60,928 nt of DNA from positions 1 to 60,928 of IMG/VR virus record IMGVR_UViG_3300025018_000165; one strand, 5' to 3'. Below are positions 1 to 60,928 of the stretch, in pieces (the first letter of the stretch is position 1; the number at the start of each line of letters is the position of its first letter). A program made the position numbers and the translations under genes. The stretch comes from a virus. Taxonomy: Duplodnaviria; Caudoviricetes. A model generated the notes under the pieces. That model ran no database searches, had not been told where the DNA came from, and saw nothing but the letters and a program-made list of their open reading frames with translations.

Positions 1-346
1 TTGAATTTGGATTTTTATGGTATGATAAAATCAATATGGTGAACACGAGGAGGAAGGGTAGGAAGAATGAATTGAAGGCACGGGATTTTTTACTGGGTCT
101 TGGTTATCTGGTCGAACTAACAAAGAACCCTAGTCGATTTCAGAAACAGCAGGATTTATTCGGTCTATGGGATTTGATGGCCATACGGGATGATGGGATT
201 TTGTTTATTCAAGTCAAATCTAACCGAAGGGTTTACGGAAAGGAATTGGCTCGCTATTTGAACTTTCCTAAACCACCGGGGTGTTCTTTGCAGATTTGGA
301 CTTACTGGGATCGAAAAAATGAACCTGAAATAATAACCTATTGAAT
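1..346 (+). repeat. Left junction repeat, diverged copy of 36100-36445
   Basis: Offset 36,099. Identical over 1-87, then about 23 substitutions by manual count, mostly synonymous; similarity ends just after the nuclease stop codon. Confidence 0.97.
36..344 (+). CDS. PD-(D/E)XK nuclease, Hjc-like Holliday junction resolvase (allele A)
   Basis: KGRKNE...GY...DL...FIQVKS pattern typical of Hjc-type resolvases; directly upstream of terminase genes. Confidence 0.7.
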   Translation: MVNTRRKGRKNELKARDFLLGLGYLVELTKNPSRFQKQQDLFGLWDLMAIRDDGILFIQVKSNRRVYGKELARYLNFPKPPGCSLQIWTYWDRKNEPEIITY

Positions 347-787
347 ATGGCAAAACCTTTTAAGTTTGACGAAATTGAGGATATTGAAAAATTGAGATTA
401 GTGATTGAAGATTATTTTAATACGACACCGGAGGAAGATTGGACTGTAACCGGACTGGCGATGGCAATGGATTGCGACAGGGACACTTTGTTGAATTACG
501 AGAAAAATAAACAAGGTCAACACGATAAAGTTCCGCCTGAGATAATTCGGCTCATTAAAAAAGCTAAGATGAAAATTCATAACGCTTATGAAAAAGATTT
601 GCGTCATAAAAGCCGTTCAGGCGATATTTTTGCGCTTAAAAATTTTGGTTGGAGCGACCGTCAAGAATTTGACCACACGACCAAAGGTGAAAAAATCAAT
701 TCGTTCTCGCAATTATCACCGGAAGCTCAAAAAGCTATGAGTGATATTTACGAAACCGAAATGAAATCTAAAAATCTTAATAAATGA
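347..787 (+). CDS. terS: Terminase small subunit A (P22 gp3-like packaging protein)
   Basis: YF...TVTGLA...RDTLLNYE HTH region and IFALKNFGWSD motif; first gene of head operon. Confidence 0.8.
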   Translation: MAKPFKFDEIEDIEKLRLVIEDYFNTTPEEDWTVTGLAMAMDCDRDTLLNYEKNKQGQHDKVPPEIIRLIKKAKMKIHNAYEKDLRHKSRSGDIFALKNFGWSDRQEFDHTTKGEKINSFSQLSPEAQKAMSDIYETEMKSKNLNK

Positions 788-796
788 TTAAGCACT

Positions 797-3313
797 ATGC
801 TAGATCAAAAAGGCAGTCCACTTGTCCGTGTTCGTTTTCATGGTCAGGCGGCTCGAGAGAAGATTCTTAATGGTGTCAATGCCGTTGCTAATGCAGTCAA
901 GACTACAATGGGAGCTAAAGGCCGGACGGTTTTTACCAGTTACGGCCACGCGACAAAGGACGGGGTTACGGTTGCCCGTGATGTCGAATTGTTTGAGGAC
1001 ACTGCATCAGCGCATGGTGCGCGTTTAATCAAAGAGGCGGCGATAAATACTTGCGATAAGGCAGGCGATGGTCCACAACCTCTTTGGAGTAAAGTTTTAA
1101 CTCCAACAGGGTTTGTTGCCATGAAAGAGATTAAGCAGGGCATGGAAATTTGTGGAACGAATGGTACGAAACAAAAAGTTATTGGTGTTTTTGATAAGGG
1201 AGTAAAACAAATTTATAAGGTTGAATTAATTGATGGAAGGGTAGTTTTATGTTCGGAGGAACATCTTTGGCAAGTTTCTTCGGAACTTTGGAAGGGTAAA
1301 AGTAAATTGATGACGACAAAACAGTTATTTGATCGTGGGCCTGTAAAAACAAATAAAACAGGCGAGATTCGCCATCTTTTTTATATCCAAAATAATGAGG
1401 TTGATTTTCAAGAAAACAAAGACGAAATGCCATTAGACCCGTATTTTCTTGGCGTATTACTCGGCGATGGAAGTTTAAGCGGAACCGGAAGTATTGAACT
1501 GTCTCTTGGTTTCAAAAAACGACATATTCTAAAAAAGTTGAAATTGCCTGAAGGAGTTACTGCTTCGTCAAGAGATTGTAAAAAATATATTCGTGTAAAA
1601 TTAAAGGATTCATTATTGAAAAAAAGTCTGGAGCGTTTGGGTTTGTACGGTACAAAAAGCGACAGTAAGTTTATTCCATCCGCGTATCTTTATTCTTCAC
1701 AGAAATCACGAAAAGAGCTTTTACGCGGTTTGATTGACACAGACGGTCATATAAATACTCGCGGTCTTTTTGAGTTTTCTACCGTCTCTCCGAAACTAGC
1801 AAGAGATTTTACTGAATTATGCAACGGTTTAGGGATAACTGTTCATTCACGCATTCATTCGCGAAATCAAGAAGATTCTTATTCAGACCGACCAATTTTC
1901 CGTATTACTGAATTAAAGGGATATAAGTTAGGTATTCCAATTCATTCTATTGAACAGACGACTGAAAAGACTCAAATGCGTTGCATTAAAGTCAGTAATC
2001 CCGATCACTTATACATAACAGATGGTTATGTTGTAACGCATAACACTACAACTGTGTGTGTCATTGCTCAAACTCTTATCAAGGAAGGTTTGCGATTGAT
2101 TAACGATGGGAAAGACCCACAAGATTTGAAAAAAGAACTGGAACAAAGTAAAGACAAAATCATCTCGGCTTTGAAGGATCAATCAATGCCGGCAACTGAT
2201 GTGTCAAAGATTGCCAACATTTCCGCCAATGACCCTAAACTAGGTGAAATTGTTGCCAAAGCCGTAACAGCAGTCGGTGTCGATGGTTTGGTAACGATTG
2301 AGAAAACTTATGGCGAGCAAGAAATTGAAGTAGCGGACGGAATGCAGTTAGATAAGGGATTGCTTCGCGGCCCTTACTTGACCGATGGAGAACGGCGACG
2401 AGCTGATTATAAAGATGTCGCGGTTCTTTTGTTTAATGGGAAGATTCACGATTTGATTGGCTTTGCCAAGGCGGTCGAACCGCTGGTGAAAGAAGGCAAG
2501 CCGATTCTTATTGTCGCCGATGATTACGACACGCCGGTTGCGCGCTCGCTTGAGCTGACAATGCTGAAAGGTATGGGTCGTTTCATTCCAATTAAAAGTC
2601 CGCACATCTATCACGATGAGACCTTTCAAGACTTGGCCGCTTACACCGGCGCGACAGTCTTGACCGAAGCAGATAGTTTCAAAAATTTTGATCCGTCATT
2701 CTTGGGTCACGCCAAGCAGGTGATTGCGACGGTTGATAAGACGACTATCCGTTGTGATGACGACCGGAAAGAAGCGATTGCAAAACAAATTGAGGTTATC
2801 AACGAACACGCCAAGCAATATGTTGAAAGCGAACGCAAGAATGTCTTGAAGCGTGCTTCGCGCTTGAAGGGTAAAACCGCGATTGTTAAATTGCCCGAAA
2901 CTACCGAGGCCGAAGGTAAAGAAGTGCGAGATAGGGTTGAGGACGCTATTTACGCTTCGCAGGCGGCCTTGGAGATGGGAATAGTGCCTGGAGGTGGTTA
3001 TGCCTACCTGGCCGCGTCCTATGAGCTTGAAGGCAAGAGCGATGGCGACAAGGTATTGCGCTTGGCTCTGAGCAGTCCGCTGAAACAAATTGTCAAGAAT
3101 GCCGGTCATAATGACGCGAAGATTCTTGAGCTGTGCGAGAAACAAAAAATGATGTTCAATGTTTTGACCGAAGAATTTGAAGACACGATGGCCACAAATG
3201 TCATTGATCCCTTGAAGGTTGCACTCTCGGCTTTCGAGAATGCGCTATCAGTCGCTCTGGTGGCCTTGACCACCGAAGTTGTAATTGCTGAACAAGAATT
3301 AAAAGAAGAATAA
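797..3313 (+). CDS. groEL: Group I chaperonin GroEL precursor with intein (838 aa; about 514 aa spliced)
   Basis: AVKTTMGAKGR, TKDGVTVA, AGDG/TTT, ISAN, GMQLDKG, RVEDA, GIVPGGG and VIDPLKV motifs; followed by groES. Confidence 0.95.
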   Translation: MLDQKGSPLVRVRFHGQAAREKILNGVNAVANAVKTTMGAKGRTVFTSYGHATKDGVTVARDVELFEDTASAHGARLIKEAAINTCDKAGDGPQPLWSKVLTPTGFVAMKEIKQGMEICGTNGTKQKVIGVFDKGVKQIYKVELIDGRVVLCSEEHLWQVSSELWKGKSKLMTTKQLFDRGPVKTNKTGEIRHLFYIQNNEVDFQENKDEMPLDPYFLGVLLGDGSLSGTGSIELSLGFKKRHILKKLKLPEGVTASSRDCKKYIRVKLKDSLLKKSLERLGLYGTKSDSKFIPSAYLYSSQKSRKELLRGLIDTDGHINTRGLFEFSTVSPKLARDFTELCNGLGITVHSRIHSRNQEDSYSDRPIFRITELKGYKLGIPIHSIEQTTEKTQMRCIKVSNPDHLYITDGYVVTHNTTTVCVIAQTLIKEGLRLINDGKDPQDLKKELEQSKDKIISALKDQSMPATDVSKIANISANDPKLGEIVAKAVTAVGVDGLVTIEKTYGEQEIEVADGMQLDKGLLRGPYLTDGERRRADYKDVAVLLFNGKIHDLIGFAKAVEPLVKEGKPILIVADDYDTPVARSLELTMLKGMGRFIPIKSPHIYHDETFQDLAAYTGATVLTEADSFKNFDPSFLGHAKQVIATVDKTTIRCDDDRKEAIAKQIEVINEHAKQYVESERKNVLKRASRLKGKTAIVKLPETTEAEGKEVRDRVEDAIYASQAALEMGIVPGGGYAYLAASYELEGKSDGDKVLRLALSSPLKQIVKNAGHNDAKILELCEKQKMMFNVLTEEFEDTMATNVIDPLKVALSAFENALSVALVALTTEVVIAEQELKEE
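1073..2044 (+). mobile_element. Intein (324 aa, class 3-like) with LAGLIDADG homing endonuclease
   Basis: Starts PQPLWSKVLTPTG; block B CSEEHLW; LGVLLGDG and LRGLIDTDG endonuclease motifs; block F MRCIKV; ends VVTHN with +1 Thr; removal restores GDGTTT. Confidence 0.93.
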
Positions 3314-3930: not shown

Positions 3931-4185
3931 ATGCTCGAAGCTCTATTGACCGGCCTTACAGTTTTTCTGGCTCTACGATTCGACCGGTATTTAGAGCGGA
4001 TAAAGGAGGACGAAAAGACTTTGGCTCAAGTAGTCAGGGAAGCATTGCCAAGCGAAAAAGCTGAGGTGATGCTTCCCATGAATGATGAAGAATACAACCA
4101 ATATTTACTGGATTTGTCTTCGAGAGGCGAGTTATTGAATAAACTAAAAAAACCATGGAAATTCCTATCTCGGAAATCTCCATAA
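3931..4185 (+). CDS. Hypothetical protein with hydrophobic N-terminus
   Basis: Tightly packed ORF overlapping the terL start. Confidence 0.6.
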   Translation: MLEALLTGLTVFLALRFDRYLERIKEDEKTLAQVVREALPSEKAEVMLPMNDEEYNQYLLDLSSRGELLNKLKKPWKFLSRKSP

Positions 4186-5723
4186 TTGGTTTTCTTAAAG
4201 AGCAGAACATTAAAAATGAACGGGGTGACTTGATTGATTTTTACGATAGGCCGTTTCTTTTTGACCCAATGCGCGACTGGTCAAGGTTTCAAGTTTATAA
4301 AAAATGCGCTCAGATTGGGATGAGTACCACTATGGCCTTGAAGTCTTTGTATGCGGCAAGATACAAAGGGTGGAACATCATTCACACCTTTCCAACCGAT
4401 TCTGATGCTCGGGAGTTTGTCACGACCAAGACGAATAAGATTCTCCAAGCGAATGAGGTGTTTGCCGGTATTCAATCCGACAACATTGAACGCAAACAAA
4501 TTGGCGATAGGTTTCTGCACTATAAGGGAACAATCAGTAAGTCGGCGGCTATTGCGACAACCGCTGATTTGCTTATTTCAGACGAAAAAGATAGGGGCGA
4601 TCAACAGAAGCATAAAGACTTTGAAAGCCGTCTTATTGCCTCGGATTACAAAGGCGTTTGGTCATTGAGCAACCCGTCAATTGAAGGGAACGGTGTTGAT
4701 CCCGACTGGGAGCTATCAGACAAGAAAGAATGGTTTGTTACCTGTAAAGATGGTCATTCGTGTCCGATGACTTTTCCGGCCAGTATCAATCAGAAAACTC
4801 GCAAGTTTCAGTGTTCCGAGTGCGGTCTTGAATTAAGCGATGACGACCGGCGCAGGGGCGAATGGGTAAAGACCGGAGACGAGAACGCCAAGTGGAGCGG
4901 TTATCATATTACGCTTCTTATTGCTCCATGGATTACCGCTGATTATATTTTAGACCAATGGGCGGACGGTAAAAATCCTGAGTATTTTCATAACTTTATT
5001 TTGGGTGAACCTTACAGCCCTGGCGATACAAAAATTGACAAGCATGTCATTTTAGATAACTGGACACCTAAGAATATTGAGACCGGCCAGTATTATTTGG
5101 GCGTGGATGTCGGGAACATCAAGCATTATGTTATTGGAAGCGAGAAGGGGATTTTGAAGGTCGGGACTTTCACCAACTGGCACGAATTGGACAAGATTTT
5201 GATGGCGTTCAATCCGATTACGGTTATGGACGCAATGCCTGACAATACGATGGCGCATCACTATAAAGACACTTTCCCCAACTTCTTTATCTGCCATTTC
5301 AGCAGGGATCAAGAGAACAACACCATTATTCGTTGGGGTGAGAAAGAAAAACAGGGAATAGTTTTTGCCGACCGGTCGAGGATAATTGACCGAATTGTTA
5401 TGGAATTATTGGAAGGCAAGATTTTATTTGCTTTGCCTTCTGATAAAGATTTTAGGGTATTCCTTGACCATTGTTCATCGCTTCGGAGGGTAAAAGAGAC
5501 AAATGCTTTGGGGATTGAGCGATATGTCTGGGATACATTGGAAGGTAAGGAAGACCATTATTTCTTTGCGTTGCTCTATTACTACTTGGCAATTCAGAGC
5601 CACGCTTCCGGTTCAGCGACCATAATTGGGGCTGGTGAGCCGCCAAAATCAATCGTCCAATCAATTTCAGGTTTCAAAAACAACCTAAAAGAGGAGTTAG
5701 AAGCTAGGGAATATGGATATTGA
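4155..5723 (+). CDS. terL: Terminase large subunit A (lambda GpA-like)
   Basis: Walker A-like KCAQIGMST, Walker B LLISDE, SNP coupling motif, Cys/His cluster, nuclease LGVDVG and EDHY. Confidence 0.9.
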   Translation: MEIPISEISIIGFLKEQNIKNERGDLIDFYDRPFLFDPMRDWSRFQVYKKCAQIGMSTTMALKSLYAARYKGWNIIHTFPTDSDAREFVTTKTNKILQANEVFAGIQSDNIERKQIGDRFLHYKGTISKSAAIATTADLLISDEKDRGDQQKHKDFESRLIASDYKGVWSLSNPSIEGNGVDPDWELSDKKEWFVTCKDGHSCPMTFPASINQKTRKFQCSECGLELSDDDRRRGEWVKTGDENAKWSGYHITLLIAPWITADYILDQWADGKNPEYFHNFILGEPYSPGDTKIDKHVILDNWTPKNIETGQYYLGVDVGNIKHYVIGSEKGILKVGTFTNWHELDKILMAFNPITVMDAMPDNTMAHHYKDTFPNFFICHFSRDQENNTIIRWGEKEKQGIVFADRSRIIDRIVMELLEGKILFALPSDKDFRVFLDHCSSLRRVKETNALGIERYVWDTLEGKEDHYFFALLYYYLAIQSHASGSATIIGAGEPPKSIVQSISGFKNNLKEELEAREYGY

Positions 5724-6018: not shown

Positions 6019-7809
6019 ATGGCGTATTTCGATATGAAAGATGACCAACTGATAAAACTCATCGAGAACCGATGGGCTTCTTCTGCTTCCATTTGGGATG
6101 AGATTCAGAAGGTAACGGAAGCCAACACAAAAATTTATAAAGGTGATTGTGCGTGGTGGAACAATGCGCGCATTCCACCGACCAGACCGAAGGTAAACTC
6201 CAGTCGTGTTTTTACCAATACCGAGGCGGTTATCAATGCTTTGATTGCCAATCCACCGCGTCCCAATGTGCTTCCAGGGCGTATTTCGCCAAGTGCTAAG
6301 GAGCTAAGTTCAATTCTTGAGGGTTATTTGAATATTAGCTATGACAAGCTGAACACTAAGGAAGTCTTGCGTCAGGGTTTGCGCGATTTGTTTTTGTCTC
6401 GGCTGATTGTTCTGAAACCATATTGGAATCACAAGACAAATGATTTTGATGTAAAACGAGTTGACCCCAAGAAAGTTAGATTTTCAGTAAAAGCCAAGAA
6501 TGAAATTGAAAGTGAATTTGCTATTGAGGAAATTGATTCAACCGTCGCTCAGTTGATTGCGATGTTTCCCGATAAAGAGAAAGATATTTTGTCTGTTACA
6601 AATTTGGATGCCGAACAATTGTTATTGCAGAACCCAAGTTGTGTCTACAAAGAGGCGTGGATCGGTAATGATTTGTTCATTAAGTATAAAGACTTGATTT
6701 TGTATAAAGGCCGTAACCCCTATTTTGACTGGGACGGCTTGATTGCCACAAGAGACGAAATGGTAACGCTGGAAGCTGATGACGGAGTTGAATACAAAGA
6801 CAAGATAAAGTCGATGAAGAACGCCAAGCTCTCAGACATTGGACAGCTTGAAGAAGGGATGGAAGACAAGACTATTCAAGAGTATCGGAAGACCGATAAG
6901 GAAGTTTCCTATGAGGCCTACCTTTTCAATTATTTTGACATTCCGCGCAAGCCTTATATTTTTGCCTCGGTTTTGGGGAACGAAAATAGACCCATCGGCA
7001 TGACTTCGTTCATCGAACAGGCGACAAGTTTGCAAGAAATGGTTGACAGAACTGTTTATCAAATCTTTCTGAACTCGGAAATGGTTAATGGCATCACTAA
7101 AGTTGATTCCGGTTTGACAAATCTATCCAAATCTGATGCCCAGACTTTGCGCTACGATGCCAATGGCGTGATTTTCGGCAAGGGTGTCATAAACGGCGTT
7201 GGGCGTGAGTTTGGACAAGGCTTGCCAAGTTTTATCTTTTCAGCCCTTGAAGATTATAGAAAAGAAATTGACAACATCATGGCCGCTTCCTCGGCTTTCC
7301 GCGGTGAGCGTGAAGGGACGGAGACTAAAGCCGGTCGCCTTGCCTTGGTCGAGCAGTCATATCAGCGTTTGAACGAGCTGGTGCAAGTGGTCGATTATGT
7401 GTCGCGCGAGTTGTTTGGCTGGTGGATGCAGTTAATGAAAGTAAAATACACGGAAAAACACATGGTGAAACAGGTCGGTTCCGATGACGCATTGAAGATT
7501 ATCGAAATTAGCCAAGACGACTTGGAAGACGGGATTGAGGTTCGCATTATACCAGGTAAGACCTTGCCTGAGGATAAAAACTTCCGTTATCAACGCGCTC
7601 AAACGGATGTTGCGGCCGGTTATATCAGTCCGCTCAAGTATCTTGAAGAAGCCGGTTATCAAGACCCGAAACAGGTGGCTAAAGAGGCGTTCGAGTTCGC
7701 TCAAAATCCTTCCGGCACTTTAGGGATCGAACAAGCACCGCCTCAACAGCCGGAAATGCAACCTTCAATTCAACAACCGCCCGAATTAGCGCAAATGATT
7801 GGCAGTTAG
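6019..7809 (+). CDS. Portal protein A
   Basis: 596 aa, between terL and scaffold; RVDPKKVRF, GE.ETKAG..AL..Q and Q/P-rich tail typical of podoviral portals. Confidence 0.85.
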   Translation: MAYFDMKDDQLIKLIENRWASSASIWDEIQKVTEANTKIYKGDCAWWNNARIPPTRPKVNSSRVFTNTEAVINALIANPPRPNVLPGRISPSAKELSSILEGYLNISYDKLNTKEVLRQGLRDLFLSRLIVLKPYWNHKTNDFDVKRVDPKKVRFSVKAKNEIESEFAIEEIDSTVAQLIAMFPDKEKDILSVTNLDAEQLLLQNPSCVYKEAWIGNDLFIKYKDLILYKGRNPYFDWDGLIATRDEMVTLEADDGVEYKDKIKSMKNAKLSDIGQLEEGMEDKTIQEYRKTDKEVSYEAYLFNYFDIPRKPYIFASVLGNENRPIGMTSFIEQATSLQEMVDRTVYQIFLNSEMVNGITKVDSGLTNLSKSDAQTLRYDANGVIFGKGVINGVGREFGQGLPSFIFSALEDYRKEIDNIMAASSAFRGEREGTETKAGRLALVEQSYQRLNELVQVVDYVSRELFGWWMQLMKVKYTEKHMVKQVGSDDALKIIEISQDDLEDGIEVRIIPGKTLPEDKNFRYQRAQTDVAAGYISPLKYLEEAGYQDPKQVAKEAFEFAQNPSGTLGIEQAPPQQPEMQPSIQQPPELAQMIGS

Positions 7810-8641: not shown

Positions 8642-9724
8642 ATGCAATTTTCTGCTCAAGTTACTTCGGTAACTCGAACTTACATTGTCCCTGACCTTTT
8701 CAGTCAAATCAATGTCGGTTCCCCTTTGCTCTTGAGCGTGCTTTCCGAAGCCGCTGAATGGAGCACTGGTACTAAATATGAATTGATTGTCAAAACTGCT
8801 CTCTCTACCAATGGTGGCGTTACCGGAATTGCCGATCAACTCGACAGCTCTCGTCAGACCAACCGCGCAACGATGTCTTTTGAGCCTCGCTCGAACTACA
8901 AGCCGGTTGTGGTTGCGAATATCGAAATGGAGTTAAACAAAGGTGATGAGCGCATTTTGGACTTGGTTCATTCTGAAATGATGAGCCAGGCGGCTGATTT
9001 GTGCGAAAGCCAAGCTGATTTGGTCTTTGCCGGCACAGGTGTTGGCAATGACTGGTCTTCAATCGCTATGGCGGCTGATGACGGAACAAATTATTCCACT
9101 TATGGTGGTCTTTCTCGCACCACTTACTCAGCTTTGGCCGGTTACTACTTGGCCTCGGTCGGTTCATTGACCTTAGCCAAATTGGCGACGGCTTTTGATG
9201 CCGTTGAGGCCGGTACTGATTCTCCGACTGGTATCTTCACCACCAAATCCCTCTGGAGTGTTTATGAAACTCTTTTGACCCCGATTGTCAATGCTAATTA
9301 CACTGCGGTCGGTTCTCAAATGGCTTCCATGACCCCTGATGGAATTGTGATGGGTAAAGAAGCGTTGTCCGGTTCTCAAGGTTTCCGCGCTGTTACTTAT
9401 CGCGGAACTCCGATCATGAAAGACGAACACTGCCCGTCTGGCCGCGTCTTCCTGGTCAACTCGAAGAAAAATGGCAAATTCCGCAACTTCGGTTTTGCGG
9501 CCATCAATCGCTCGGGTAAAGAATTCTCTACTGTTAATTTCAGCAAGAAAGATGGCTCGCCTGTCGGTACTTTCGGTTCTAGCAAAGTGCCGCGTGGTTT
9601 CAACTTCCGCGATATGATGTCGCCGGTTGACCAGCTCGCTCAGGTTGGTTACTTGCTGTTTGACGGTGAATTCATCGCGGCTGAACCTCGTTTGCAGGGT
9701 ATCTTGCTCGGAGTTACGGCCTAG
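8642..9724 (+). CDS. Major capsid protein A
   Basis: 360 aa after scaffold; YGGLSR, YRGTPIMKDEHCPSGRVFLVN and PRLQG HK97-fold-type motifs. Confidence 0.88.
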   Translation: MQFSAQVTSVTRTYIVPDLFSQINVGSPLLLSVLSEAAEWSTGTKYELIVKTALSTNGGVTGIADQLDSSRQTNRATMSFEPRSNYKPVVVANIEMELNKGDERILDLVHSEMMSQAADLCESQADLVFAGTGVGNDWSSIAMAADDGTNYSTYGGLSRTTYSALAGYYLASVGSLTLAKLATAFDAVEAGTDSPTGIFTTKSLWSVYETLLTPIVNANYTAVGSQMASMTPDGIVMGKEALSGSQGFRAVTYRGTPIMKDEHCPSGRVFLVNSKKNGKFRNFGFAAINRSGKEFSTVNFSKKDGSPVGTFGSSKVPRGFNFRDMMSPVDQLAQVGYLLFDGEFIAAEPRLQGILLGVTA

Positions 9725-13858: not shown

Positions 13859-14527
13859 ATGACGAAAGGCAAGAAAATACTTATCGGAATGCCAAATGGT
13901 AGCGGTCAAGTGCCAGTCGAGATGGTTCAGTCTTTACTGCAACTGCATAAACCGTTCCCTTGTGCTTTCTTGCCTGTTGTTCGTCAAAGGGTTGATAAAT
14001 GCCGAAATGGAATTGCGATGGAAGCGTTAAAGGGCGGATTTGATTATGTCTTTATGGTTGATGACGATAATCCTGTTCCGCCTGAAACACTTGCCCAATT
14101 CATTGAGGACGATAAGGACATAGTGATTGCCCCGATTTTAGCCAGAAACCCCGATCCCGATGGAAACTACTCGCTTTGCGCCTTCTACTCGGAGAAGAAA
14201 AAAATCAAAAAGAATTATCTTAGAATTTATAAGAACATTGTTTCCTTCAAAGACGAAGGGCCTTTGCACAAAATTGATGCAGGTGGAACCGGCTGTATGC
14301 TGATTAAACGGAAGGTGTTGGAGGCGATGAATAAAAAACATCAGGACTTAATGTTCGAGTTTGGCGATGTCACTGTTGACGGCCAACGGCGGACAATGAG
14401 CGAGGACGCTGAGTTTTGCGAGCGAGCCGTTGATCTCGGCTTTGAAATTTGGTTGGACGAACGCATTAAGCCAATTCACTTCACGCAAATGAAGGCGATT
14501 AAATGGAATCCGTATGGCAACCTATGA
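13859..14527 (+). CDS. Glycosyltransferase, GT-A / family 2-like
   Basis: RN...A...FDYVFMVDDD (DxD), GTGCMLIKRKV and SEDAEFC motifs. Confidence 0.85.
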   Translation: MTKGKKILIGMPNGSGQVPVEMVQSLLQLHKPFPCAFLPVVRQRVDKCRNGIAMEALKGGFDYVFMVDDDNPVPPETLAQFIEDDKDIVIAPILARNPDPDGNYSLCAFYSEKKKIKKNYLRIYKNIVSFKDEGPLHKIDAGGTGCMLIKRKVLEAMNKKHQDLMFEFGDVTVDGQRRTMSEDAEFCERAVDLGFEIWLDERIKPIHFTQMKAIKWNPYGNL

Positions 14528-15743
14528 TGTAACAACTGCCGCCACTAGCTTGGAGTTTGATACCGTTAATGGATCTTACAATTCATCGGTCAATATTGAC
14601 ACCAATCATTTTGTTAACTCATTTATTGGGGCAACTGCAAATAATTCTGTTTTACAAGTTTTTGCAGTGAATACTTCGACTTGGGCGGTTACTACTGTTG
14701 GAACAGCTTTAGTCGGTATTCAGACGACAAATAGTTTGAAATTAGGTCTTGCACAAATTGATTCAAATCATTTTATTTCAAATTGGTGTAATACTAACAG
14801 TGCAAGAGCGCAGGTCTTTGAAGTAAATACAACCACTTGGGCAGTTACTACATCAAATTCATCTTTTGTTTATGATACGACAGCTGTTACCCATGAACCA
14901 GAGGTAAATGCAATAGTTGGAGTTGATGCCAACCATTTTTTGAGTATGTTCGGTGGCGGTCCTAGCTCAGAGCTCGATGTGATTATTCTTGCAGTCAACA
15001 CTTCAACTTGGGCAGTCACTACTTCAGGTTCATTGTTGACTATTGAAACTGACCTAAATTCTCCACATAGTTCCTGTGTTCAAATTGATAACAATCATGT
15101 GCTTGCCATTTGGGCTAAGTCAGGGATAGGTTTGCAAACGCAAGTTATGGTTGTTAATACTTCAACTTGGGCGATTTCTACTGCACAGGCAAAATTTCAA
15201 ATTGGAGTGGTAGGTTCCGGTGATGGTGGTAATTCAGTTGAAATGATTGATTCAAATCATGCTGTAATATTTCATCAAGGAGTTGATGATGATGGTTTTG
15301 CACAAGTCGTTACGATAAATACATCAACTTGGGCGATTTCTACTGCTTCAAGTGCATTAGAATTTGATACCGTCCTTGGATATAGACATTCTTGTCAGCA
15401 AATAGACGATAATCATTTTATAAATTTCTTCTCTGGAAATAGTTTCTACGGGTATGTTCAGGTTTTCACAATAGATACTTCAACTTGGGCTATTACAACA
15501 ACAACTGCTTCCCTTGAGTTTGATACTACTCAAGCTACAGATTTAAGCTCAGTAAAAATAGATGCAGGACATTATGTATGTTTCTGGACTGATGTTAATT
15601 CTGACGGTTTCGTCCAGACCTTTACAGTTGAATTAGGCGCAACTTCATCGATCAAGAATTTCAATGGTCTAGCTTATGCCTCGACCAAAACGGTAAATGG
15701 TTTGGCAATAGCCAGTGTTAAGAATAAAAACGGTTTGGCTTAA
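14514..15743 (+). CDS. Repeat (beta-propeller-like) virion protein
   Basis: About seven ~52-aa repeats with IDxNH and NTSTWA(V/I)(T/S)T; C-terminal triple KxxNGLA. Confidence 0.7.
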   Translation: MATYDVTTAATSLEFDTVNGSYNSSVNIDTNHFVNSFIGATANNSVLQVFAVNTSTWAVTTVGTALVGIQTTNSLKLGLAQIDSNHFISNWCNTNSARAQVFEVNTTTWAVTTSNSSFVYDTTAVTHEPEVNAIVGVDANHFLSMFGGGPSSELDVIILAVNTSTWAVTTSGSLLTIETDLNSPHSSCVQIDNNHVLAIWAKSGIGLQTQVMVVNTSTWAISTAQAKFQIGVVGSGDGGNSVEMIDSNHAVIFHQGVDDDGFAQVVTINTSTWAISTASSALEFDTVLGYRHSCQQIDDNHFINFFSGNSFYGYVQVFTIDTSTWAITTTTASLEFDTTQATDLSSVKIDAGHYVCFWTDVNSDGFVQTFTVELGATSSIKNFNGLAYASTKTVNGLAIASVKNKNGLA

Positions 15744-18766: not shown

Positions 18767-20617
18767 ATGGCCTTTACTCCATTGTCAGTCCAAAATTATT
18801 TGCAATCTAAACTTGGTGCGCCAAAAAAACCCGAAACACCCAAGGTTGATTATGGCTATTCAATGCCAGGTACTTTGATGTTTGGTTCGACTAATCCTTT
18901 AGCGAAGGTTGCACCGACTTCAAAACCAACTACCCCTTCAAATTTTAATTATTCTCAGGTTAGTCCAACACCTTCGGTTTCGACCTATAATACGGCGGCT
19001 CTGGATAAGGTCGCCCCTAAACCGGCCGGTGGAGGCGGTTTTAGCGCACCACAGGGCTCAGAATTGGCTTCTAAGGTCGCTTCGATGTCTTTAGCCGCCG
19101 AAGGCCCTAAAACCCCGTCTATCCCCACTCCTGCCTCTGCAGGGGCCTCATCAGCCGTCAATATGGCTAATCTAAAGTCATTGGCTGAACAAAACTTGCA
19201 AAAATACCAAGAACAGGTCTTGTCATCTATGTCGCCTTCGGAACAGGAAAAGGCACTGGCACAAGAATTGGCGCAATTTCGAGGCGACGCGGCCATGGGC
19301 ATCTCTGGACTGGAAGGCCAAGGCCGTGGCATACCGCTTGAATTGATCCGTGGACAACAAGGTAAACTTGCTGAACAGGCCAATATCCAAGAACAGACCC
19401 TGCTTGGCCGTCTTTCAGCCGCTGAACAAGCAAGACAGTCGCAGTTAATGGCGGCTCAGACCTCGCTTGGTTTCAGTGAAGCTGAATTGGCGCGTGAAGA
19501 TGCGATGAAACAAGCGGAAGCGGCCGGTCTGCAACCGATTAAAATCGGTGATAATTTGGTTGCAATCAATCCCGAGACTGGACAATATGAGACAGTTTAT
19601 CAAGCACCGGTTTCGTCTGCTACTGATTTACCTGCTCTGGCTCAGGAGTTTGAATATGCTAAATCTCAAGGTTACGCCGGTTCATTTACTGATTATCAGC
19701 GAGAGAAAGCTGGTGAATTTGGTGCGCCTTCGACTTCTCAAGGTCCAGCTACAGTTCAAGAATATGAATATGCCTTAGGGCAAGGTTTCCAGGGTTCATT
19801 TCTTGATTACCAACGAGCTAAATCAGAAATGGGAACTTCTGCTAAACCGCCAACAGCGGAACAGGCGAAAGCTGGTGGATTCGCAAGTCGTATTCAACAA
19901 GCAACTCAAATTATTGATTCTCTGAGTTCTCAGTTTACTGGGCTTGCTTCTTATGCCGGAGCTGTTTTACCTGAATACTTCAAATCTGAAGACCGTAAAT
20001 TATTAGAACAAGCTCAAAGAAATTTCGTGAATGCTGTATTGCGCCGAGAATCAGGAGCGGCAATTTCACAGAGCGAGTTTAATAATGCGGCGTTGCAGTA
20101 TTTCCCACAACCAGGTGATACCGAAACTGTATTGACACAAAAAAAACAAAATCGCGATACGGTTTATAATAATCTTTTACTTGAAGCATCTGGTGAACGA
20201 ACTGGTCAGACCGAAGTTAAAGATGATCCATTAGGTCTTTTTAACTCAGCCGCGGGACAGGCGTTAAACAGCCCAGTTAAACAGGTTGCCGCCGCCATTA
20301 AGAAGGTTGAAAGCGGTGGAAATTATAATGCCAAGGGCGGAAGCGGTGAATTTGGCGCATATCAATTTATGCCAGCAACTTGGAAGAGCTGGGCGAAGCA
20401 ATATCTCGGCGATCCCAATGCGCCGATGACCCAGAAAAATCAAGATTATGTCGCTGAAAAGAAAATAAAGGATTTGCTGAATCAGGGTTATACGCCGTAC
20501 CAAGTAGCTTTGGTCTGGAATGGCGGACAACCAGTGGTCAAGAAAGGCGTGAATAAATACGGAGTAGCTTATGACAGTGGAGCGTATGCGAATAAGGTAA
20601 TTAAAGCTCTAGGATAA
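18767..20617 (+). CDS. Ejection (internal virion) protein with C-terminal lytic transglycosylase
   Basis: Low-complexity and coiled-coil N-part; two QE(F/Y)EYA..QG..GSF.DYQR repeats; VESGGNY, GAYQFMPATW and WNGG lysozyme-like motifs. Confidence 0.8.
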   Translation: MAFTPLSVQNYLQSKLGAPKKPETPKVDYGYSMPGTLMFGSTNPLAKVAPTSKPTTPSNFNYSQVSPTPSVSTYNTAALDKVAPKPAGGGGFSAPQGSELASKVASMSLAAEGPKTPSIPTPASAGASSAVNMANLKSLAEQNLQKYQEQVLSSMSPSEQEKALAQELAQFRGDAAMGISGLEGQGRGIPLELIRGQQGKLAEQANIQEQTLLGRLSAAEQARQSQLMAAQTSLGFSEAELAREDAMKQAEAAGLQPIKIGDNLVAINPETGQYETVYQAPVSSATDLPALAQEFEYAKSQGYAGSFTDYQREKAGEFGAPSTSQGPATVQEYEYALGQGFQGSFLDYQRAKSEMGTSAKPPTAEQAKAGGFASRIQQATQIIDSLSSQFTGLASYAGAVLPEYFKSEDRKLLEQAQRNFVNAVLRRESGAAISQSEFNNAALQYFPQPGDTETVLTQKKQNRDTVYNNLLLEASGERTGQTEVKDDPLGLFNSAAGQALNSPVKQVAAAIKKVESGGNYNAKGGSGEFGAYQFMPATWKSWAKQYLGDPNAPMTQKNQDYVAEKKIKDLLNQGYTPYQVALVWNGGQPVVKKGVNKYGVAYDSGAYANKVIKALG

Positions 20618-20618
20618 T

Positions 20619-22346: not shown

Positions 22347-22464
22347 ATTCGATTATATCCATCTCTCGCCGGTAATTCTTATAAATTTCCCACTGTTCTA
22401 TTGAGTAAGGGATGAAATATACTATAGATAGAATGACTAGCGCATATCCGATATAGACCAACAT
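22324..22464 (-). CDS. Small antisense membrane protein (46 aa), moron-like
   Basis: MLVYIGYALVILSIVYFIPYS... read manually; has its own promoter. Confidence 0.55.
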   Translation of the reverse strand: MLVYIGYALVILSIVYFIPYSIEQWEIYKNYRREMDIIESNPKYHS

Positions 22465-22495
22465 AATTGATTGATAAGGGAATAAACTACGAATA

Positions 22496-39299: not shown

Positions 39300-39301
39300 A
39301 T

Positions 39302-43011: not shown

Positions 43012-43944
43012 ATGTCTCTATCTTCAGGAATGAATGCAAATGTCGTGAAGACAGCATTGGACAGTGTTGTTTTTACGAATTATGAGCAAGCTCCAGGCCC
43101 TTCAGTGGCTGGGGCATCAGATCCCGTAATTTTTGTCCAAGACTCAACTGATCGTGCAGCTGTTATTGAGGAAGCTTACAAAGGTGTTGGTTTCTTCGCA
43201 GAAACTTTGGAAGAACAAGATATTCCGAGTGATACTCCTCGCGTTGCACAACAGAAGACCTTTTCCGTTATTGATTATTGGAAAAGTGTCGATATTCCGA
43301 AACGCTTTCTTGATGATGAACTCCATGGAGTTGTCAGCATGATGATGCGTGATTTCGGTCTTAAAGCTCGCCGCAGTGCTGATAACAGTGCGATGAAGTT
43401 TATCCGCGATGGATTTACTGTTTCAACGACTGCAGACGCTGCTTATTTGTTCTCTGCTAGCCATAGCAATATTGCCGGCGATACGATTGACAACTTGTCA
43501 AGTGCCGCATTAGCCGAGGCTTCCCTTGAGGATGCTATCGTGGCTTTAATGGAACAAAAAGATCAAGCAGGCGAAGTGATGGGTGTTATGCCCCGCTGCC
43601 TCTTGGTTCCGCCTAAGCTCTTCAAGACTGCGGTTCAATTAACTGCCTCTGAACTTGAACCGGAAACCGGTAACAATGCTGTTAACTGGATTTCGCTCAA
43701 GTATAGCGGTTTGATGGTCAAGCAGAGCCCGTACCTTGGAGCTGCCGCTGGCGGTTCTGATTCTGCTTGGTACTTAATCGGTGAGAATCACAACTTGCGT
43801 CGTTTTGTCCGATCCCCCTTTCAGACGACTCTTGTTCCGTGGGAAACTCAGCGAAACAATAACTACATTTACAAAGGTGGTTATCGTGAAGTTGTTGGTG
43901 CATTAACCTACGAGGGTCTTTACGGTTCGACTGGTGTTGCTTAA
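43012..43944 (+). CDS. Major capsid protein B (Mu gpT-like)
   Basis: LFSASH, KDQAGE...PRCLLVPPKL, SPYL...AWYL and YGSTG motifs. Confidence 0.88.
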   Translation: MSLSSGMNANVVKTALDSVVFTNYEQAPGPSVAGASDPVIFVQDSTDRAAVIEEAYKGVGFFAETLEEQDIPSDTPRVAQQKTFSVIDYWKSVDIPKRFLDDELHGVVSMMMRDFGLKARRSADNSAMKFIRDGFTVSTTADAAYLFSASHSNIAGDTIDNLSSAALAEASLEDAIVALMEQKDQAGEVMGVMPRCLLVPPKLFKTAVQLTASELEPETGNNAVNWISLKYSGLMVKQSPYLGAAAGGSDSAWYLIGENHNLRRFVRSPFQTTLVPWETQRNNNYIYKGGYREVVGALTYEGLYGSTGVA

Positions 43945-49515: not shown

Positions 49516-49746
49516 ATGTCTGGGAGGATAACAAACGAAGTCCTCTGTGAGCGGATTGAGAGTTTGCACGCTTTAGTCAAACTTCAGTTTGAAACTAATA
49601 CTGAGGCTCATAATCAGGTTAATGCTCACTTGAAACAGCTTAACGGCCAAGTGATCAAGAATACGCGCTTTAGGTGGCAAGTTTTAGCTTATGTCCCATT
49701 AGTTGTTGTTCTAATAGAATTAGTTTTAAGAGAACTAATAAATTAA
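49516..49746 (+). CDS. Small membrane protein, holin-like (module B)
   Basis: HLKQLNGQVIKNTRFRWQVLAYVP nearly identical to the 22549 protein. Confidence 0.6.
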   Translation: MSGRITNEVLCERIESLHALVKLQFETNTEAHNQVNAHLKQLNGQVIKNTRFRWQVLAYVPLVVVLIELVLRELIN

Positions 49747-49748
49747 AT

Positions 49749-50705
49749 ATGAACTACGGCTTGCTTAGGGAGAAAAAACTAAACCCAAAAGATTATCGGG
49801 CCGGAGGTATTACACCAATTGAGCACAAGGTTATTTTGAAGGATGGTAATTATCTTAATTACTTGCCGAGGGCTGAATATCAAATAGGGGTTTACTTCGA
49901 CACGGCCGCATGTGTGTCATTCTCAGCTCTTAATTGCCTTGAGACCTTATCGAGAGTAGAAAAGAACCAAGAAGATTTCTCTGATCGTTTCACAGCAAAG
50001 ATGAGCGGAACGACTAAGAACGGAAATTACCTCAGCAAAGTGGCTGAGAGCCTTCGGTTAGATGGCGTTGTGCCGGAAGACGCATGGCCTTATCCAAGAG
50101 AACAGCGCGATCCTGTTTTCAATTGGTATGACTACTATTCTGAAATCCCCCAATACTTAAAAGATGCCGGGCAAGAATGGCTAAAGGCAAATGAAATAAG
50201 ATGGGAATGGGTTGATGTAAACGAAGCGGCCAACCGATTGATTTATGGGCCTCTACAAGTGACGGTCTATGCTTGGCCGAAGATTTATAACAATGAGGTG
50301 TTTTATACTGATGGGGGGAACACAATTCGCAATCACGCAGTTGAACTGGTAGCTGCCGACTCGCAAAAGTTCATTATCTATGACAGCTACGATAAAACGA
50401 TTAAGTTCCTATCCCTCAATTATCGTTTCGGTTCAGCCATCCAATTTTTCAAAACTCCTAAAATTGAAACGCCTTCTATGCCTATTTCATTACCTAACGA
50501 CATCTTAGTTCAAGAAGTTGAGCAGTCAGGAACTTTTGCCTTGCACTTAGATGGCAAATTGATCATTGGGGAAGAAGGCAAGCTCTTGGCGACTTGGCTG
50601 ATGCGGAACAAAGGCAAGGTTTCCGGCAAGGCTATACCGATAACAAAAGAGGATTGGGATATGTTTCCAAAAATTAACTTAAAAGGTGAACCCTTAAATA
50701 ACTAA
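49749..50705 (+). CDS. Papain-like cysteine peptidase, endolysin candidate (module B)
   Basis: EYQ...ACVSFSALN, FSDRF, NHAVEL and IYDSY motifs. Confidence 0.75.
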   Translation: MNYGLLREKKLNPKDYRAGGITPIEHKVILKDGNYLNYLPRAEYQIGVYFDTAACVSFSALNCLETLSRVEKNQEDFSDRFTAKMSGTTKNGNYLSKVAESLRLDGVVPEDAWPYPREQRDPVFNWYDYYSEIPQYLKDAGQEWLKANEIRWEWVDVNEAANRLIYGPLQVTVYAWPKIYNNEVFYTDGGNTIRNHAVELVAADSQKFIIYDSYDKTIKFLSLNYRFGSAIQFFKTPKIETPSMPISLPNDILVQEVEQSGTFALHLDGKLIIGEEGKLLATWLMRNKGKVSGKAIPITKEDWDMFPKINLKGEPLNN

Positions 50706-52504: not shown

Positions 52505-54523
52505 ATGGAAGCCAAATGGCAAACAATCGAAGAATTTAACGCTGGACTACTCCACAAAAAAGACGTGACGCAAATGCCTGGCGGTGCTTTGATTTTAGGT
52601 TCTAAAAATGTAGTTCTAAACGACGGCGACCGAATTACCGTGCGCAAAGGAAGTGAATTATTTGGTGCGTCCAGCTCGACTCAAACGCCGATTAAAAGCA
52701 TGTACACCTTTAAGAAGCGCGATGGCTCGGAGATTATGATGCGTTCTTATGGGACGGTTTTGGAGTATTATCACCCTGATACTGCCGCCTGGACTAATCT
52801 TTACAGCGGTTATACCACCGGACAAATTTTTGGCTTTGCTGATCATAATGTAAATACTGATAACAGCGACTTTGTTTATTTCTGTAATGCTATTGAACCT
52901 TATTCAAGATGGAATGGTGCTTATACGATGTTGAATGGAGCATTATCTGGTGGAGAAACCGAAGTAGTAGTTGATGGTGTTTTAACAGAAGATGTTTTTT
53001 ATTCTGGAACAGCATCAGTTTGTTCGACCACAACGATTGACATAGCGACATCAAGCTGGGCAACTGATGTTTGGAATGATGATTTTTATGTCCTTATTAC
53101 TGACGGAGCTCAAATAAATGTTATTGCAAATATCACCGATACCACAACAACACGGATTACATTTGATACAATTACTGGACTTTCAGGAACTCCGACATTT
53201 CAAATTAGAAAATTAAAATTTTCGGGTTCAGGTAACTTACGAATTGGAACGACTACCGTTTCTTATACAGGATTTGACGATCAATATACTTTCAGCGGTT
53301 GTGGCAGTGTTCCGGCTGCTTTAGACAATGCGGCAGTTTGTCAGTCAATAACGGAATATCCGGCTAATCCGAGGGGGAATGTTTTAATGACCCTCCATAC
53401 TCGAGTTTATATTGCTAATATAACTGGACAAGAAAGCACTTTATATTATTCGACTATTGCTGATGCGACTGATTTCACATATTTATCACCCAGAAGTGCT
53501 GATGAGGGTGGTGTTATTGATACACCTGAAGGCGGCGGTGGAATTATTGGTTTAGGTAAACAAGAAGATGTTATTTATATCATTAAAGAAGATCTGGTTA
53601 AGACTTTGACATTCACGCAAGATGCGACTGATTTACCACAAATTTATCCATTAATTGATGCCCCTGGCGTTGGTGCGGTTACTGGATTGTCAGTTTTCAA
53701 AGTGGATAATGCTTTGATTTATGTTTCTAAGGAAGGCGGTGTAAAAGAAGTGTCTCGTGTTTCCGTAGTTGATTACGCTGAACCAAAACAAATCAGTGAT
53801 CCAATTGTAAATTTAGTAAATGATTTGGTATTTGATGCCTCCGCTGGGTTTTTCTTTAAGCAGAAGATGTATATTACTTGTCGAGAAAGTGACAGTTCAT
53901 ATAACAATGTTATTTTAACCTATAACTTCCAAAAGAAAGCATGGGAAGCTCCAATTTATGGTTGGGGAGCAAATTGTTTTACTATTTACGGAAATAAATT
54001 GTATTTTGGATCTTCAACTACACCTGAAGTTTATAAAGCAGAAATTGATACCTATACAGACAATGAAGTTGGTTATCAAGCGGTAGCGCGATTCAGTTAT
54101 AACAATTTTGGCTCGGCAACCAATCCAAAGGAGTTTGGAATGTTGTTTCTTGAAGGTTATATCTCAGAAAGCACGACAATCAATATCAAATTACGCTATA
54201 ATTATCTGGGGACGCAAGAAATTCGTGAATCGAGTTTAGCTGGTACCGAGACCGATTATATCGTAAAAGCGTCAACAGAAAATATTTTAGGTAATGAAGT
54301 TTTGGGTATTAATCCGTTAGGTTTACCGATAAATGAAGAAGACGTTCCAAATGAATTGCAGAAGTTTCGGGTGTATTTTACAACACCAAATGTCCCATTC
54401 TACGAAGTAAGTTTGGAAGTTTCATCAGATGAAGCTGGAAGTCGATGGGAGATTCTACGCTTTGGCTATGATGTAAAACTTTTGCCTACTCCGGTTGTAA
54501 ATAATAAAAAAGCACTAAAATAA
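52505..54523 (+). CDS. Tail nozzle / stabilisation protein B
   Basis: F..GL...NV...GDRITVRKG start, LYYS and ISDPI; propeller-like; follows adaptor. Confidence 0.7.
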   Translation: MEAKWQTIEEFNAGLLHKKDVTQMPGGALILGSKNVVLNDGDRITVRKGSELFGASSSTQTPIKSMYTFKKRDGSEIMMRSYGTVLEYYHPDTAAWTNLYSGYTTGQIFGFADHNVNTDNSDFVYFCNAIEPYSRWNGAYTMLNGALSGGETEVVVDGVLTEDVFYSGTASVCSTTTIDIATSSWATDVWNDDFYVLITDGAQINVIANITDTTTTRITFDTITGLSGTPTFQIRKLKFSGSGNLRIGTTTVSYTGFDDQYTFSGCGSVPAALDNAAVCQSITEYPANPRGNVLMTLHTRVYIANITGQESTLYYSTIADATDFTYLSPRSADEGGVIDTPEGGGGIIGLGKQEDVIYIIKEDLVKTLTFTQDATDLPQIYPLIDAPGVGAVTGLSVFKVDNALIYVSKEGGVKEVSRVSVVDYAEPKQISDPIVNLVNDLVFDASAGFFFKQKMYITCRESDSSYNNVILTYNFQKKAWEAPIYGWGANCFTIYGNKLYFGSSTTPEVYKAEIDTYTDNEVGYQAVARFSYNNFGSATNPKEFGMLFLEGYISESTTINIKLRYNYLGTQEIRESSLAGTETDYIVKASTENILGNEVLGINPLGLPINEEDVPNELQKFRVYFTTPNVPFYEVSLEVSSDEAGSRWEILRFGYDVKLLPTPVVNNKKALK

Positions 54524-58728: not shown

Positions 58729-60636
58729 ATGTCTGTTCGAATTTTATCCGCTCCACAACTAAATCAACCACAAAACGAAGTATCACCTCAGAAACCTGAA
58801 GAAAAGAAAAAAGGTATTTTTTCTAGCATTTATGAAGATTTAAAAGGCCGTGGGGTAAGGATTCTTGATCGAGCTTCTTTAGCTTCTGAAAATATCTCAA
58901 GGTCGATGGCAAGAGAAGCGGCTGGCGGTCAATCTAGGCCAAGCACAGTTTTCCAAACTTTAGGAGAACTTGGTTCTGTTGGAACAGAAATTGCAACTGA
59001 AACTTTAGGAGCAGGATTAAAGGGGATTGCCAATATCTCTGCGGGTGTTAGGTCAGGTGATAAAACAATGTCTGAACAGTATCAAATAGATGCTCAGGGA
59101 ATTAAAGATGGCCTCAATTTAGCTTTCAATACTGAATTTGGTAAAAAATTAGCTACAAATGTAGAGGAATTAGGTTTTCAATGGAAGAAATTACAAGAGA
59201 CAAATCCTGTTTTAGCAGGAAACATTAAGGCTGGTGGTCAAATTGCTGATTTCGTTCTTACTTTTGCATCGCCTGAATTATTAAAAGCTCCATTTCAAAG
59301 TCTGGTAAAAACTGTTGAAAAGGAAGCGTCTTTTATTGGTAAACAATTTGCTTCTAGATTAACAAAAGAAGCAGAACAATCCGCATTAAAAACAACTGGT
59401 GAAGCAGCATTAAAGTCAGCTGAAGGTGTTGCTCAAAAACCTTCAACTGCTGGAAGTTTGATTAGTGAATATACTGAACGAATACCAAGAGCAGTAGAAA
59501 AACTACAATCACGTGCTGAACAAGCTGCTTTACGTGCAGAACGAATTGCTAATGCTACTCCTGATGTAGCTCAAGCTATTAAAGTTGGCCTAGATGATGG
59601 GATCATAAATACTATAGAGCAAGCCTCACCGGCCACAAAAAATGCCTATAAAGAAATGGTTGAGAATGCGTCTTCATCTGCTTATGATGTTAATAGAACA
59701 CTTAAGGTGACTTCTCCGACTTCACCTATTACAAAATCTGCTGACGAAATTCTTACCATTCTAAATGATGAACGAAAGTCTATTGGCCAAAAAATCGGTA
59801 CTGCTTCAGACGCTTTACCGACCAAATACGTTTCAATGGGTGATGCCAGATTGGAGATGGAGGAAGGATTACGAATGGCAGGGATTAAAGTGACGGATGC
59901 TGGATTAGATTTTGGTGGTCTTTATTCCAAAGCTCAACAATCAAAGATTAATGAGTTATACGAGTTAGCAACCGAAGGATTAAATAGAATTACTGCTAGG
60001 CAGGTTCATCAGAAAGATCAATTATTCAGCCAGCTTCAACGTGAAGCAAGAATGGAGGGTGTTGGCGATGTTCTAGTTAAAATGCCTAACGGAGACCTAA
60101 AATCAATGTTTCAGATTTTCCGAGAAGTTTATAGCAATAAATTAGATACATTGAGTCCAGAAATTCGTGAGCTTAATCGACAATATCGCGAGTCTGTTTT
60201 GTTATTAGATGATTTGGATAACACAATTTTGAAATCACCTGGAAACATTACTAATACAGCTAATCCAGCTGAATTTGCACAGATTAACTTGCGCCGAATT
60301 TTATCAGATGCCCAAAGTGCTCCAGCCTTCGAATCAGTTATGGATACAGCTTATACTAAGGCTGTTGAGTTAGGATATGAAGGTGCTGATCCTTCAGACT
60401 TAATCAGATTTTCATCTAAAATGCGTGATTTGTATCCGACTGTTATTCCGTCAAATAGTTTCCCAGGTGGAATTAGAACTGGTGTTAAAAGTGCAGTTGG
60501 TGATTTAGCTTCTAAATTCCTTGAACTCGGAAAACCAGGGTTAGAAGACCAACAGATTGCTTTGGAAAAATTACTCGGTATTTCAAGAGCCAAACAAATC
60601 ATAACCGGTAAAGTTCCAAGAAGCCAAAACAGATGA
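58729..60636 (+). CDS. Ejection / DNA-transfer protein B
   Basis: Helical A/E/K-rich protein, last gene of module. Confidence 0.65.
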   Translation: MSVRILSAPQLNQPQNEVSPQKPEEKKKGIFSSIYEDLKGRGVRILDRASLASENISRSMAREAAGGQSRPSTVFQTLGELGSVGTEIATETLGAGLKGIANISAGVRSGDKTMSEQYQIDAQGIKDGLNLAFNTEFGKKLATNVEELGFQWKKLQETNPVLAGNIKAGGQIADFVLTFASPELLKAPFQSLVKTVEKEASFIGKQFASRLTKEAEQSALKTTGEAALKSAEGVAQKPSTAGSLISEYTERIPRAVEKLQSRAEQAALRAERIANATPDVAQAIKVGLDDGIINTIEQASPATKNAYKEMVENASSSAYDVNRTLKVTSPTSPITKSADEILTILNDERKSIGQKIGTASDALPTKYVSMGDARLEMEEGLRMAGIKVTDAGLDFGGLYSKAQQSKINELYELATEGLNRITARQVHQKDQLFSQLQREARMEGVGDVLVKMPNGDLKSMFQIFREVYSNKLDTLSPEIRELNRQYRESVLLLDDLDNTILKSPGNITNTANPAEFAQINLRRILSDAQSAPAFESVMDTAYTKAVELGYEGADPSDLIRFSSKMRDLYPTVIPSNSFPGGIRTGVKSAVGDLASKFLELGKPGLEDQQIALEKLLGISRAKQIITGKVPRSQNR

Positions 60637-60811
60637 CCTAACTACTTCAATCAAACAAGCCAAACAAGCTGGTCAGTCTTTTGATGAGTGGGTGAATGGG
60701 AGAATGGAGAATATTGGACCAACCGGTGCTAGGTTTAGTGCTTTTCAATATAATCCTGACATAATCAAAACCCGCTCCCAACTAAAATCACAATGGGATA
60801 AAATTAATTAA
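60605..60811 (+). pseudogene. Out-of-frame 68-codon remnant or extension of an ejection gene
   Basis: Open +1 frame with no start codon at its 5' end, ending IKTRSQLKSQWDKIN-stop 7 nt before the next ATG. Confidence 0.45.
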
Positions 60812-60928
60812 AATCAATATGCCCCAACCTACTAACGGGGAACTTAAACTGATGATCGAAAATATACAAAATCTTATGGAGGCCGGCTTTGCTGAAAATA
60901 GCCGTTGTCATAAGGAGGTGAACGATCA
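60802..60928 (+). repeat. Right junction repeat including partial holin-like gene (60819 onward)
   Basis: Exact 127-bp copy of 22532-22658. Confidence 0.97.

Follow-up and report, generated by a model that had tools for sequence, protein, structure and literature searches.

Can one tailed phage replicon carry two unrelated capsid and packaging systems? This question is raised by the IMG/VR virus record IMGVR_UViG_3300025018_000165 (Duplodnaviria; Caudoviricetes), a single contig of 60,928 nucleotides (nt) with zero N that we analyzed entire and refer to below as the window. It consists of a virion module A (1-22531), a replication and lysis block that we call the core (22532-36186), and a virion module B (36187-60801). 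The original prediction for this DNA proposed one replicon with interchangeable packaging motors and capsids, a phage that at face value would be unprecedented. We consider it probable, at roughly 85%, that the record is an assembler path through two different groundwater phages and that the two-module replicon is not a real feature. The assembly-path reading removes a false lead, and the database record, with its 60.9 kb, two terminases, and two capsid genes, ought to be divided into two entries, one for a complete 38.3-kb phage and one for a 22.5-kb fragment. What is left over is ordinary yet useful, namely, a closed groundwater phage genome and evidence of recent cassette exchange.

Boundary repeats and the shape of the contig

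Family searches confirmed two head-tail gene sets next to one replication block, with a single Prim-Pol/PriCT, AAA_25 helicase, and AAA_24 block in the window. Repeat finding yielded two direct-repeat spacings of 36,099 and 38,270, pairing 1-300 with 36100-36399 at 95% identity and 22527-22658 with 60797-60928. The elements at these boundaries are as follows.

1-338 (+): A-side boundary allele, a promoter-like stretch and a gene of 102 amino acids (aa), 93% identical to 36100-36437
36-344 (+): 102-aa gene, A allele; no family match
22532-22658 (+): internal copy of a 127-mer, the presumed graph vertex joining the A and B paths; exact repeat of the record end
22549-22779 (+): holin-like gene, 76 aa, with a hydrophobic C-terminal stretch; no family match
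36100-36437 (+): B-side boundary allele; the passage from core to B is bridged by a contig in all four sequencing runs compared below
60802-60928 (+): terminal copy of the 127-mer, equal to 22532-22658, closing a 38,270-bp circle of core and B

Upon base-by-base comparison, the final 127 nt of the record proved to be an exact copy of 22532-22658, while the bases directly to the left mismatched immediately, which is the mark of a de Bruijn graph with k=127. A circular IMG/VR record discussed below (G006) is closed by the same footprint, and 127 is the highest k in widely used metagenome assembler settings. The stretches 1-338 and 36100-36437 differ at 23 positions, with unbroken identity for nt 1-87 only (36100-36186), and beyond 338 and 36437, the A and B sequences are unrelated. 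A BLASTN comparison of 1-22531 with the remainder of the window gave a single match of 93.4% over 346 nt (1-346), and no DNA similarity of A to core and B outside it. Within the 102-aa gene, the two alleles differ by 14 synonymous and 5 non-synonymous codons, a pattern that points to two real, selected copies from two genomes.

On the left, the record simply starts at position 1, and attachment of A to the core is seen solely at the right-hand point, 22532. As 1-338 is a diverged allele of 36100-36437, the 36,099-bp circle of A and core derives from arithmetic on a repeat of 93% identity and does not amount to a closure. Hence, of the predicted attachment of both modules to the core at the same two points, the right-hand point stood and the left turned out to be a diverged allele, and of the two predicted circles, the 38,270-bp one is closed by the 127-nt overlap whereas the 36,099-bp one lacks closure. 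The IMG/VR scan returned no relatives of the 102-aa gene and no matches to an exact 50-nt pattern at the junction, and neither Rfam (at the gathering threshold) nor ARAGORN gave a match across the window. The 76-aa gene is a putative holin, as read from its hydrophobic C-terminal stretch; its protein had no relatives in JGI metagenome contigs.

We propose that the record is a chimeric "lollipop" path in a graph that we infer to have been built at k=127, with A as the tail and core plus B as the loop. The assembler would have entered the loop from A at the common 127-mer, circled once, and stopped on re-meeting that 127-mer. The loop would represent a genuine 38,270-bp phage genome (22532-36186 plus 36187-60801) closed by the 127-nt overlap, while the tail (1-22531) would be a 22.5-kb fragment, holding packaging, head, and tail genes only, of a second phage about 4-fold rarer, whose own replication and lysis genes would lie outside the record. 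The two genomes would share the start of the holin-like gene, over at least 30 identical nt in public contigs and over 127 nt by assembly logic, as well as the homologous 102-aa gene and its promoter region at 93% identity. As no data close a loop of A, the path is drawn as a lollipop and not as the predicted figure of eight.

One report (PMC4247695) describes chimeric contigs as joining reads of more than one genome, with longer reads giving fewer of them. The record resembles the chimeric contigs of short-read viromes in being joined at a shared stretch, in changing depth at the join, and in having parts that are found apart elsewhere; it differs in that its tidy lollipop mimics a two-module replicon and in that its loop is a complete closed phage genome. 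Similarly, its final 127 nt repeat an earlier 127-mer, as in the k-length terminal repeats of circular contigs such as G006, but the partner here is internal (22532) and not at the first base, and only 22532-60801 is circular.

Depths, junctions, and separate occurrence in public data

We searched public runs with a 10-kb query made of 5 kb of the A end and 5 kb of the core, for which 24 runs were listed. Run X1 held 0.99 of the query words, whereas the other 23 of the 24 held at most 0.50; the shares of 0.08-0.36 in X5-X24 carry no information on which half of the query is present, nor on habitat. X1-X4 were compared on 19400-39399 through their Logan contigs, so that each contig contributes a single mean depth in place of raw-read coverage. 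X1 is an aquifer sample and the probable source of the record, hence not independent of it.

In X1, depth stepped from 14.4 to ~60 across the join (22532-22856). The A-end contig (8,693 nt, spanning 19400-22561 of the compared stretch) had a depth of 14.4; it starts exactly at 13869, a further graph branch, and halts at 22561, 30 nt (k-1) into the core. The six core contigs had depths of 61.9, 61.7, 64.2, 48.8, 55.7, and 61.0, with a length-weighted mean of ~59 by our own arithmetic and a summed depth of 59.9 at 22855, and the B contig (10,087 nt) had a depth of 63.1, a 4.4-fold difference from A. It had been proposed that core depth should equal that of A plus that of B; the X1 depths contradict this, as 77.5 would be expected for the sum and the core equals B instead. 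Furthermore, only one variant place above the listing threshold occurred over 20 kb in X1, evidence against the presence, at ~14x, of a second core with 90-99% identity.

The other three runs separate the parts. In X2-X4, the four A-end bins (19400-22067) had depths of 0-2.6 and the 25 core and B bins depths of 0.96-12.2; core depth resembled B depth, and long pieces carried 0-22 differences at ~99% identity. Core and B thus travel as a unit in these runs, with only traces on the A end 19400-22067. Three junctions were observed: the core-to-B junction (36186/36187) was bridged by a contig in 4 of 4 runs with 0 differences, the loose end before 22532 in X1 consists of the last 30 nt of B, and the A end reaches 30 nt into the core. 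No junction from the core to the start of A was among the matches listed. The signs by which a chimera is recognized, an internal k-mer repeated at the contig end, a depth step at the join, and parts occurring apart, were all found.

Exact-sequence protein look-ups in a collection of 15 billion proteins gave a similar separation. Proteins of A were found in 11 of 13 cases, each on at most two contigs, those of B in 11 of 12 cases on 3-8 contigs, and all five core proteins on 2-7 contigs. A contig of 22,709 nt, similar in size to module A, carries the A portal and a fibre protein that matches at 408 of 409 residues. The core helicase, identical except that its called start makes it shorter, was found on a contig of 38,643 nt, close in size to the core and B circle plus a few hundred nt; both contigs are known through these protein matches.

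Relatives of module A occur apart from this core as well. For its major capsid protein (MCP), 43 relatives were found in IMG/VR, with aa identities of up to 75%. Among five A-type relative records, four measure 38.5-40.6 kb and are rated 97-100% complete (two have terminal repeats), and the fifth (31 kb) is rated 77%. The Prim-Pol of the core was found in none of these five records, and core genes were found at none of 44 loci (43 A-type, one B-type). As complete A-type relatives reach 38.5-40.6 kb without this Prim-Pol, and the 44 loci lack core genes, A appears to be a partial genome about 16 kb short, of a type not tied to this core.

The core and B together (38,270 bp) pass as a complete tailed phage, with Terminase_3, Mu-like_gpT, Peptidase_C1, SLT, Prim-Pol, AAA_25, and AAA_24 matches plus closure. 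The circle is closed by the 127-nt overlap and by the junction seen in X1; the portal, the tail proteins, and the small terminase had no family matches and were placed by position. Most module B proteins gave no family match at all. In the IMG/VR scan, the MCP of B had a single relative locus (52%) and the last gene of B none, while its large terminase (TerL) was related to 61 loci in JGI metagenome contigs (best 61-66%), 0 of which carried core genes; no related core and B or core and A context was found there. A megablast search of INPHARED with the core as query gave no match, and the core helicase had 0 matches in the IMG/VR scan. With virion genes almost without relatives, core plus B is, as judged from its sequence, a groundwater phage of a very poorly sampled kind, and its genome is closed.

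Cassette exchange and alternative readings

The IMG/VR record G006 (loci L155-L164), a circular sequence of 38,134 nt with a 127-nt terminal repeat, shares segments with all three parts of the window. It matches the core at 24249-25710 (97.5%), 22783-23821 (95%), and 26449-27738 (97-100%, with the methyltransferase gene missing), the fibre cassette of A at 13869-15635 (98.2%), and B in pieces at 73-95%. Its head genes differ, being neither those of A nor those of B. These alignments make it clear that recent cassette exchange among co-occurring phages is real in this community, as ordinary phage mosaicism. Mosaic genome exchange among tailed phages is described by the modular theory of lambdoid phages. 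Like other cases of modular exchange in tailed phages, G006, A, B, and the core show near-identical cassettes in otherwise unrelated genomes, and A and B have boundary sequences in common at gene starts; unlike what was predicted, the data do not show a common core on which an entire 22-24-kb morphogenesis module was swapped. The idea of one replicon with exchangeable motors and capsids is thus not borne out by this record, and the cassette exchange seen with G006 is ordinary mosaicism.

The depth and occurrence data also bear on the two explanations that had been offered for the contig. One held that two co-occurring phages, A plus core and core plus B, had near-identical 13.7-kb cores that were collapsed in assembly. 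The co-occurrence of two phages stands, and four observations would sit well with a collapsed core: both A ends are homologous to sequences flanking the core, A seems broken at these places in two assemblies, the tetranucleotide signature of the core resembles that of A, and G006 shows core segments combining with other virion modules. We nevertheless regard near-identical collapsed cores as unlikely, as the X1 core (48.8-64.2) matches B and not the sum of A and B, core and B have similar depths in all four runs whether A is present or not, X2-X4 hold the core with so little of the A end, the visible A backbone (1-338) is diverged, and exact A proteins lie on fewer contigs (at most two) than core proteins (2-7). 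The other explanation, a dimorphic system in which a 74-kb A-core-B-core cointegrate resolves into two genomes and two kinds of particle, has only the topology of the record in its favor. It needs A to equal B and the core to be twofold, whereas 14.4, 63.1, and ~59 were seen; core and B occur in three other runs with nearly nothing on the A end 19400-22067, and exact A and B proteins differ in prevalence. We therefore give this system almost no credence.

A true linear 60.9-kb genome with both virion modules would account for the assembly as a single contig, yet we consider it extremely improbable: at 22532, where the Logan contigs break, a single run shows a 4.4-fold change in depth, the end carries the exact 127-nt internal repeat, A and the core helicase lie elsewhere on separate contigs of 22,709 and 38,643 nt, and the A relatives rated 97-100% complete measure 38.5-40.6 kb. 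An integrated tandem prophage pair was rejected, as the record is the entire contig, family searches gave no integrase or host genes, and the depths differ.

Several observations weigh against the chimeric path. The sequences at the two ends of A have homologues at the two ends of the core, and the 22,709-nt contig appears to stop close to these positions, as would also be expected of a shared backbone. The window start shares only 87 identical nt and is not a k=127 branch vertex, so that the start of the contig is unexplained. A further X1 contig, at depth 17.2, joins 29535 to 36382, leaving out 6,846 nt between them, and is likewise unexplained; its short side measures 22 nt, and its depth is close to that of A. 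As to the identity of A past 22561, bin arithmetic gives 54-74x for 22562-22855 according to which short pieces are counted, and we draw nothing from it. The depths are Logan contig means, and X1 may itself be the source. Finally, tetranucleotide chunk correlations place the core nearer A (0.77) than B (0.61); as B correlates with itself at 0.66 only, this comparison has no discriminating power.

Within the chimeric-path reading, what A lacks can be pictured more closely, if tentatively. It is possible, though less likely than not, that the missing backbone of A is a diverged homologue (<90% nt identity) of the core, and that the boundary stretches act as recombination linkers for whole virion modules and for fibre and lysis cassettes among at least three phage types (A, B, and G006). 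The candidate linkers are the start of the holin gene (22532) and the promoter with the 102-aa gene (1-338 / 36100-36437). If this were true, the module swap would be real over evolutionary time and not within one replicon.

Gene content of the modules and the core

Family matches were found for the predicted module A proteins, namely, the GP3_package small terminase (TerS), the GpA-type TerL, the 360-aa MCP, and a transglycosylase protein. The main features of the module are the following.

341-787 (+): TerS; PF16677 GP3_package, phrog_606
797-3313 (+): GroEL/Cpn60-like chaperonin with an intein-like insert of ~320 aa carrying a LAGLIDADG domain, by family search
4155-5723 (+): TerL, GpA-type; PF05876 GpA_ATPase, phrog_675
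6019-7809 (+): portal; phrog_156
8642-9724 (+): MCP, 360 aa; phrog_9953
13869-15635 (+): fibre-like cassette, 98.2% identical to part of G006
18767-20617 (+): 616-aa protein with a C-terminal SLT/transglycosylase domain, by family search
20619-22346 (+): final module A gene (575 aa), lacking close relatives; exact protein on 2 contigs only

In the chaperonin (797-3313), the insert sits between GDG and TTT, which we take to be parts of the nucleotide-binding motif, and ends in HN. Its first residue is neither Cys nor Ser, an atypical start for an intein, and the insert is missing in 6 of 6 chaperonin relatives, where both GroEL parts abut. The fibre-like cassette overlaps a 409-aa fibre-like protein (14514-15743, +) in which a ~53-aa unit occurs six times, always with an NTSTWA(V/I)(T/S)T motif (repeat family D3); the 90% cluster to which this protein belongs numbers 9 members from several contigs. 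The last gene of the module (20619-22346) had relatives at 27-37% identity only in the IMG/VR scan.

In module B, the Terminase_3 TerL and the Mu gpT-like MCP were found as predicted.

36431-37678 (+): ParB-like DNA methyltransferase fusion; phrog_498, phrog_620
38049-39299 (+): TerL; Terminase_3
39302-41152 (+): 616-aa protein at the portal position, called a portal by position only; no family match
43012-43944 (+): MCP; Mu-like_gpT, Phage_capsid_4
52505-54523 (+): 672-aa protein with an amidase-like stretch; phrog_5107

A CHAP ejection protein had also been predicted for this module; 52505-54523 gave no Pfam match, CHAP included, and only the PHROG "amidase" assignment.

The replication block was borne out in its primase, helicase, Sak4-like ATPase, and iteron-like repeats, whereas a single-stranded DNA-binding protein (SSB) that had been predicted there was not returned by any family search of the window.

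22785-23807 (+): Peptidase_C1-like protein, 340 aa, candidate endolysin; 95% nt identity to G006
25708-26439 (-): DNA methyltransferase; phrog_67; missing from G006 and skipped by a run X3 contig
28052-28855 (-): exonuclease-like protein; phrog_7339
30225-30929 (-): AAA_24 (Sak4-like) ATPase, by family search
33276-34325 (-): AAA_25 helicase-like ATPase; identical protein on the 38,643-nt contig
34315-35136 (-): Prim-Pol with a PriCT_1 domain, by family search
35750-35925 (no strand): iteron-like direct repeats, 25 nt x3 and 43 nt x2, upstream of the primase operon

The iteron-like repeats are a candidate origin, and family searches showed that the core also encodes an HNH endonuclease, an SLT protein, and an endonuclease VII. 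The candidate endolysin, which is followed by a small membrane protein, has a 27% identical paralogue within module B (49674-50705, +), at the place of which G006 carries the core-type allele of the Peptidase_C1-like gene. The stretch 24133-25700 holds only overlapping open reading frames (ORFs) on both strands, with raised G+C and 97.5% conservation in G006; it gave no family matches and no Rfam matches. Presence of the methyltransferase varies (25702-26449): the X3 contig skips 746 nt, and the same stretch is missing in G006. Contigs of X2-X4 skip 26512-26798, and an X1 contig skips 27712-28031. A 6-nt unit is repeated 39 times at 26944-27177, within an 87-aa ORF (26939-27202, -) that consists of alternating Ser-X dipeptides (RS, WS, KS, GS) and is 97% conserved in G006.

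A lead on the host comes from a 4,778-nt contig of a Candidatus Roizmanbacteria metagenome-assembled genome (L106), which carries four genes syntenic with the core, at aa identities of 61% for the AAA_24 protein, 42% for a 155-aa ORF, 44% for the helicase, and 35% for the Prim-Pol. Such synteny suggests a possible host within the Candidate Phyla Radiation bacteria.

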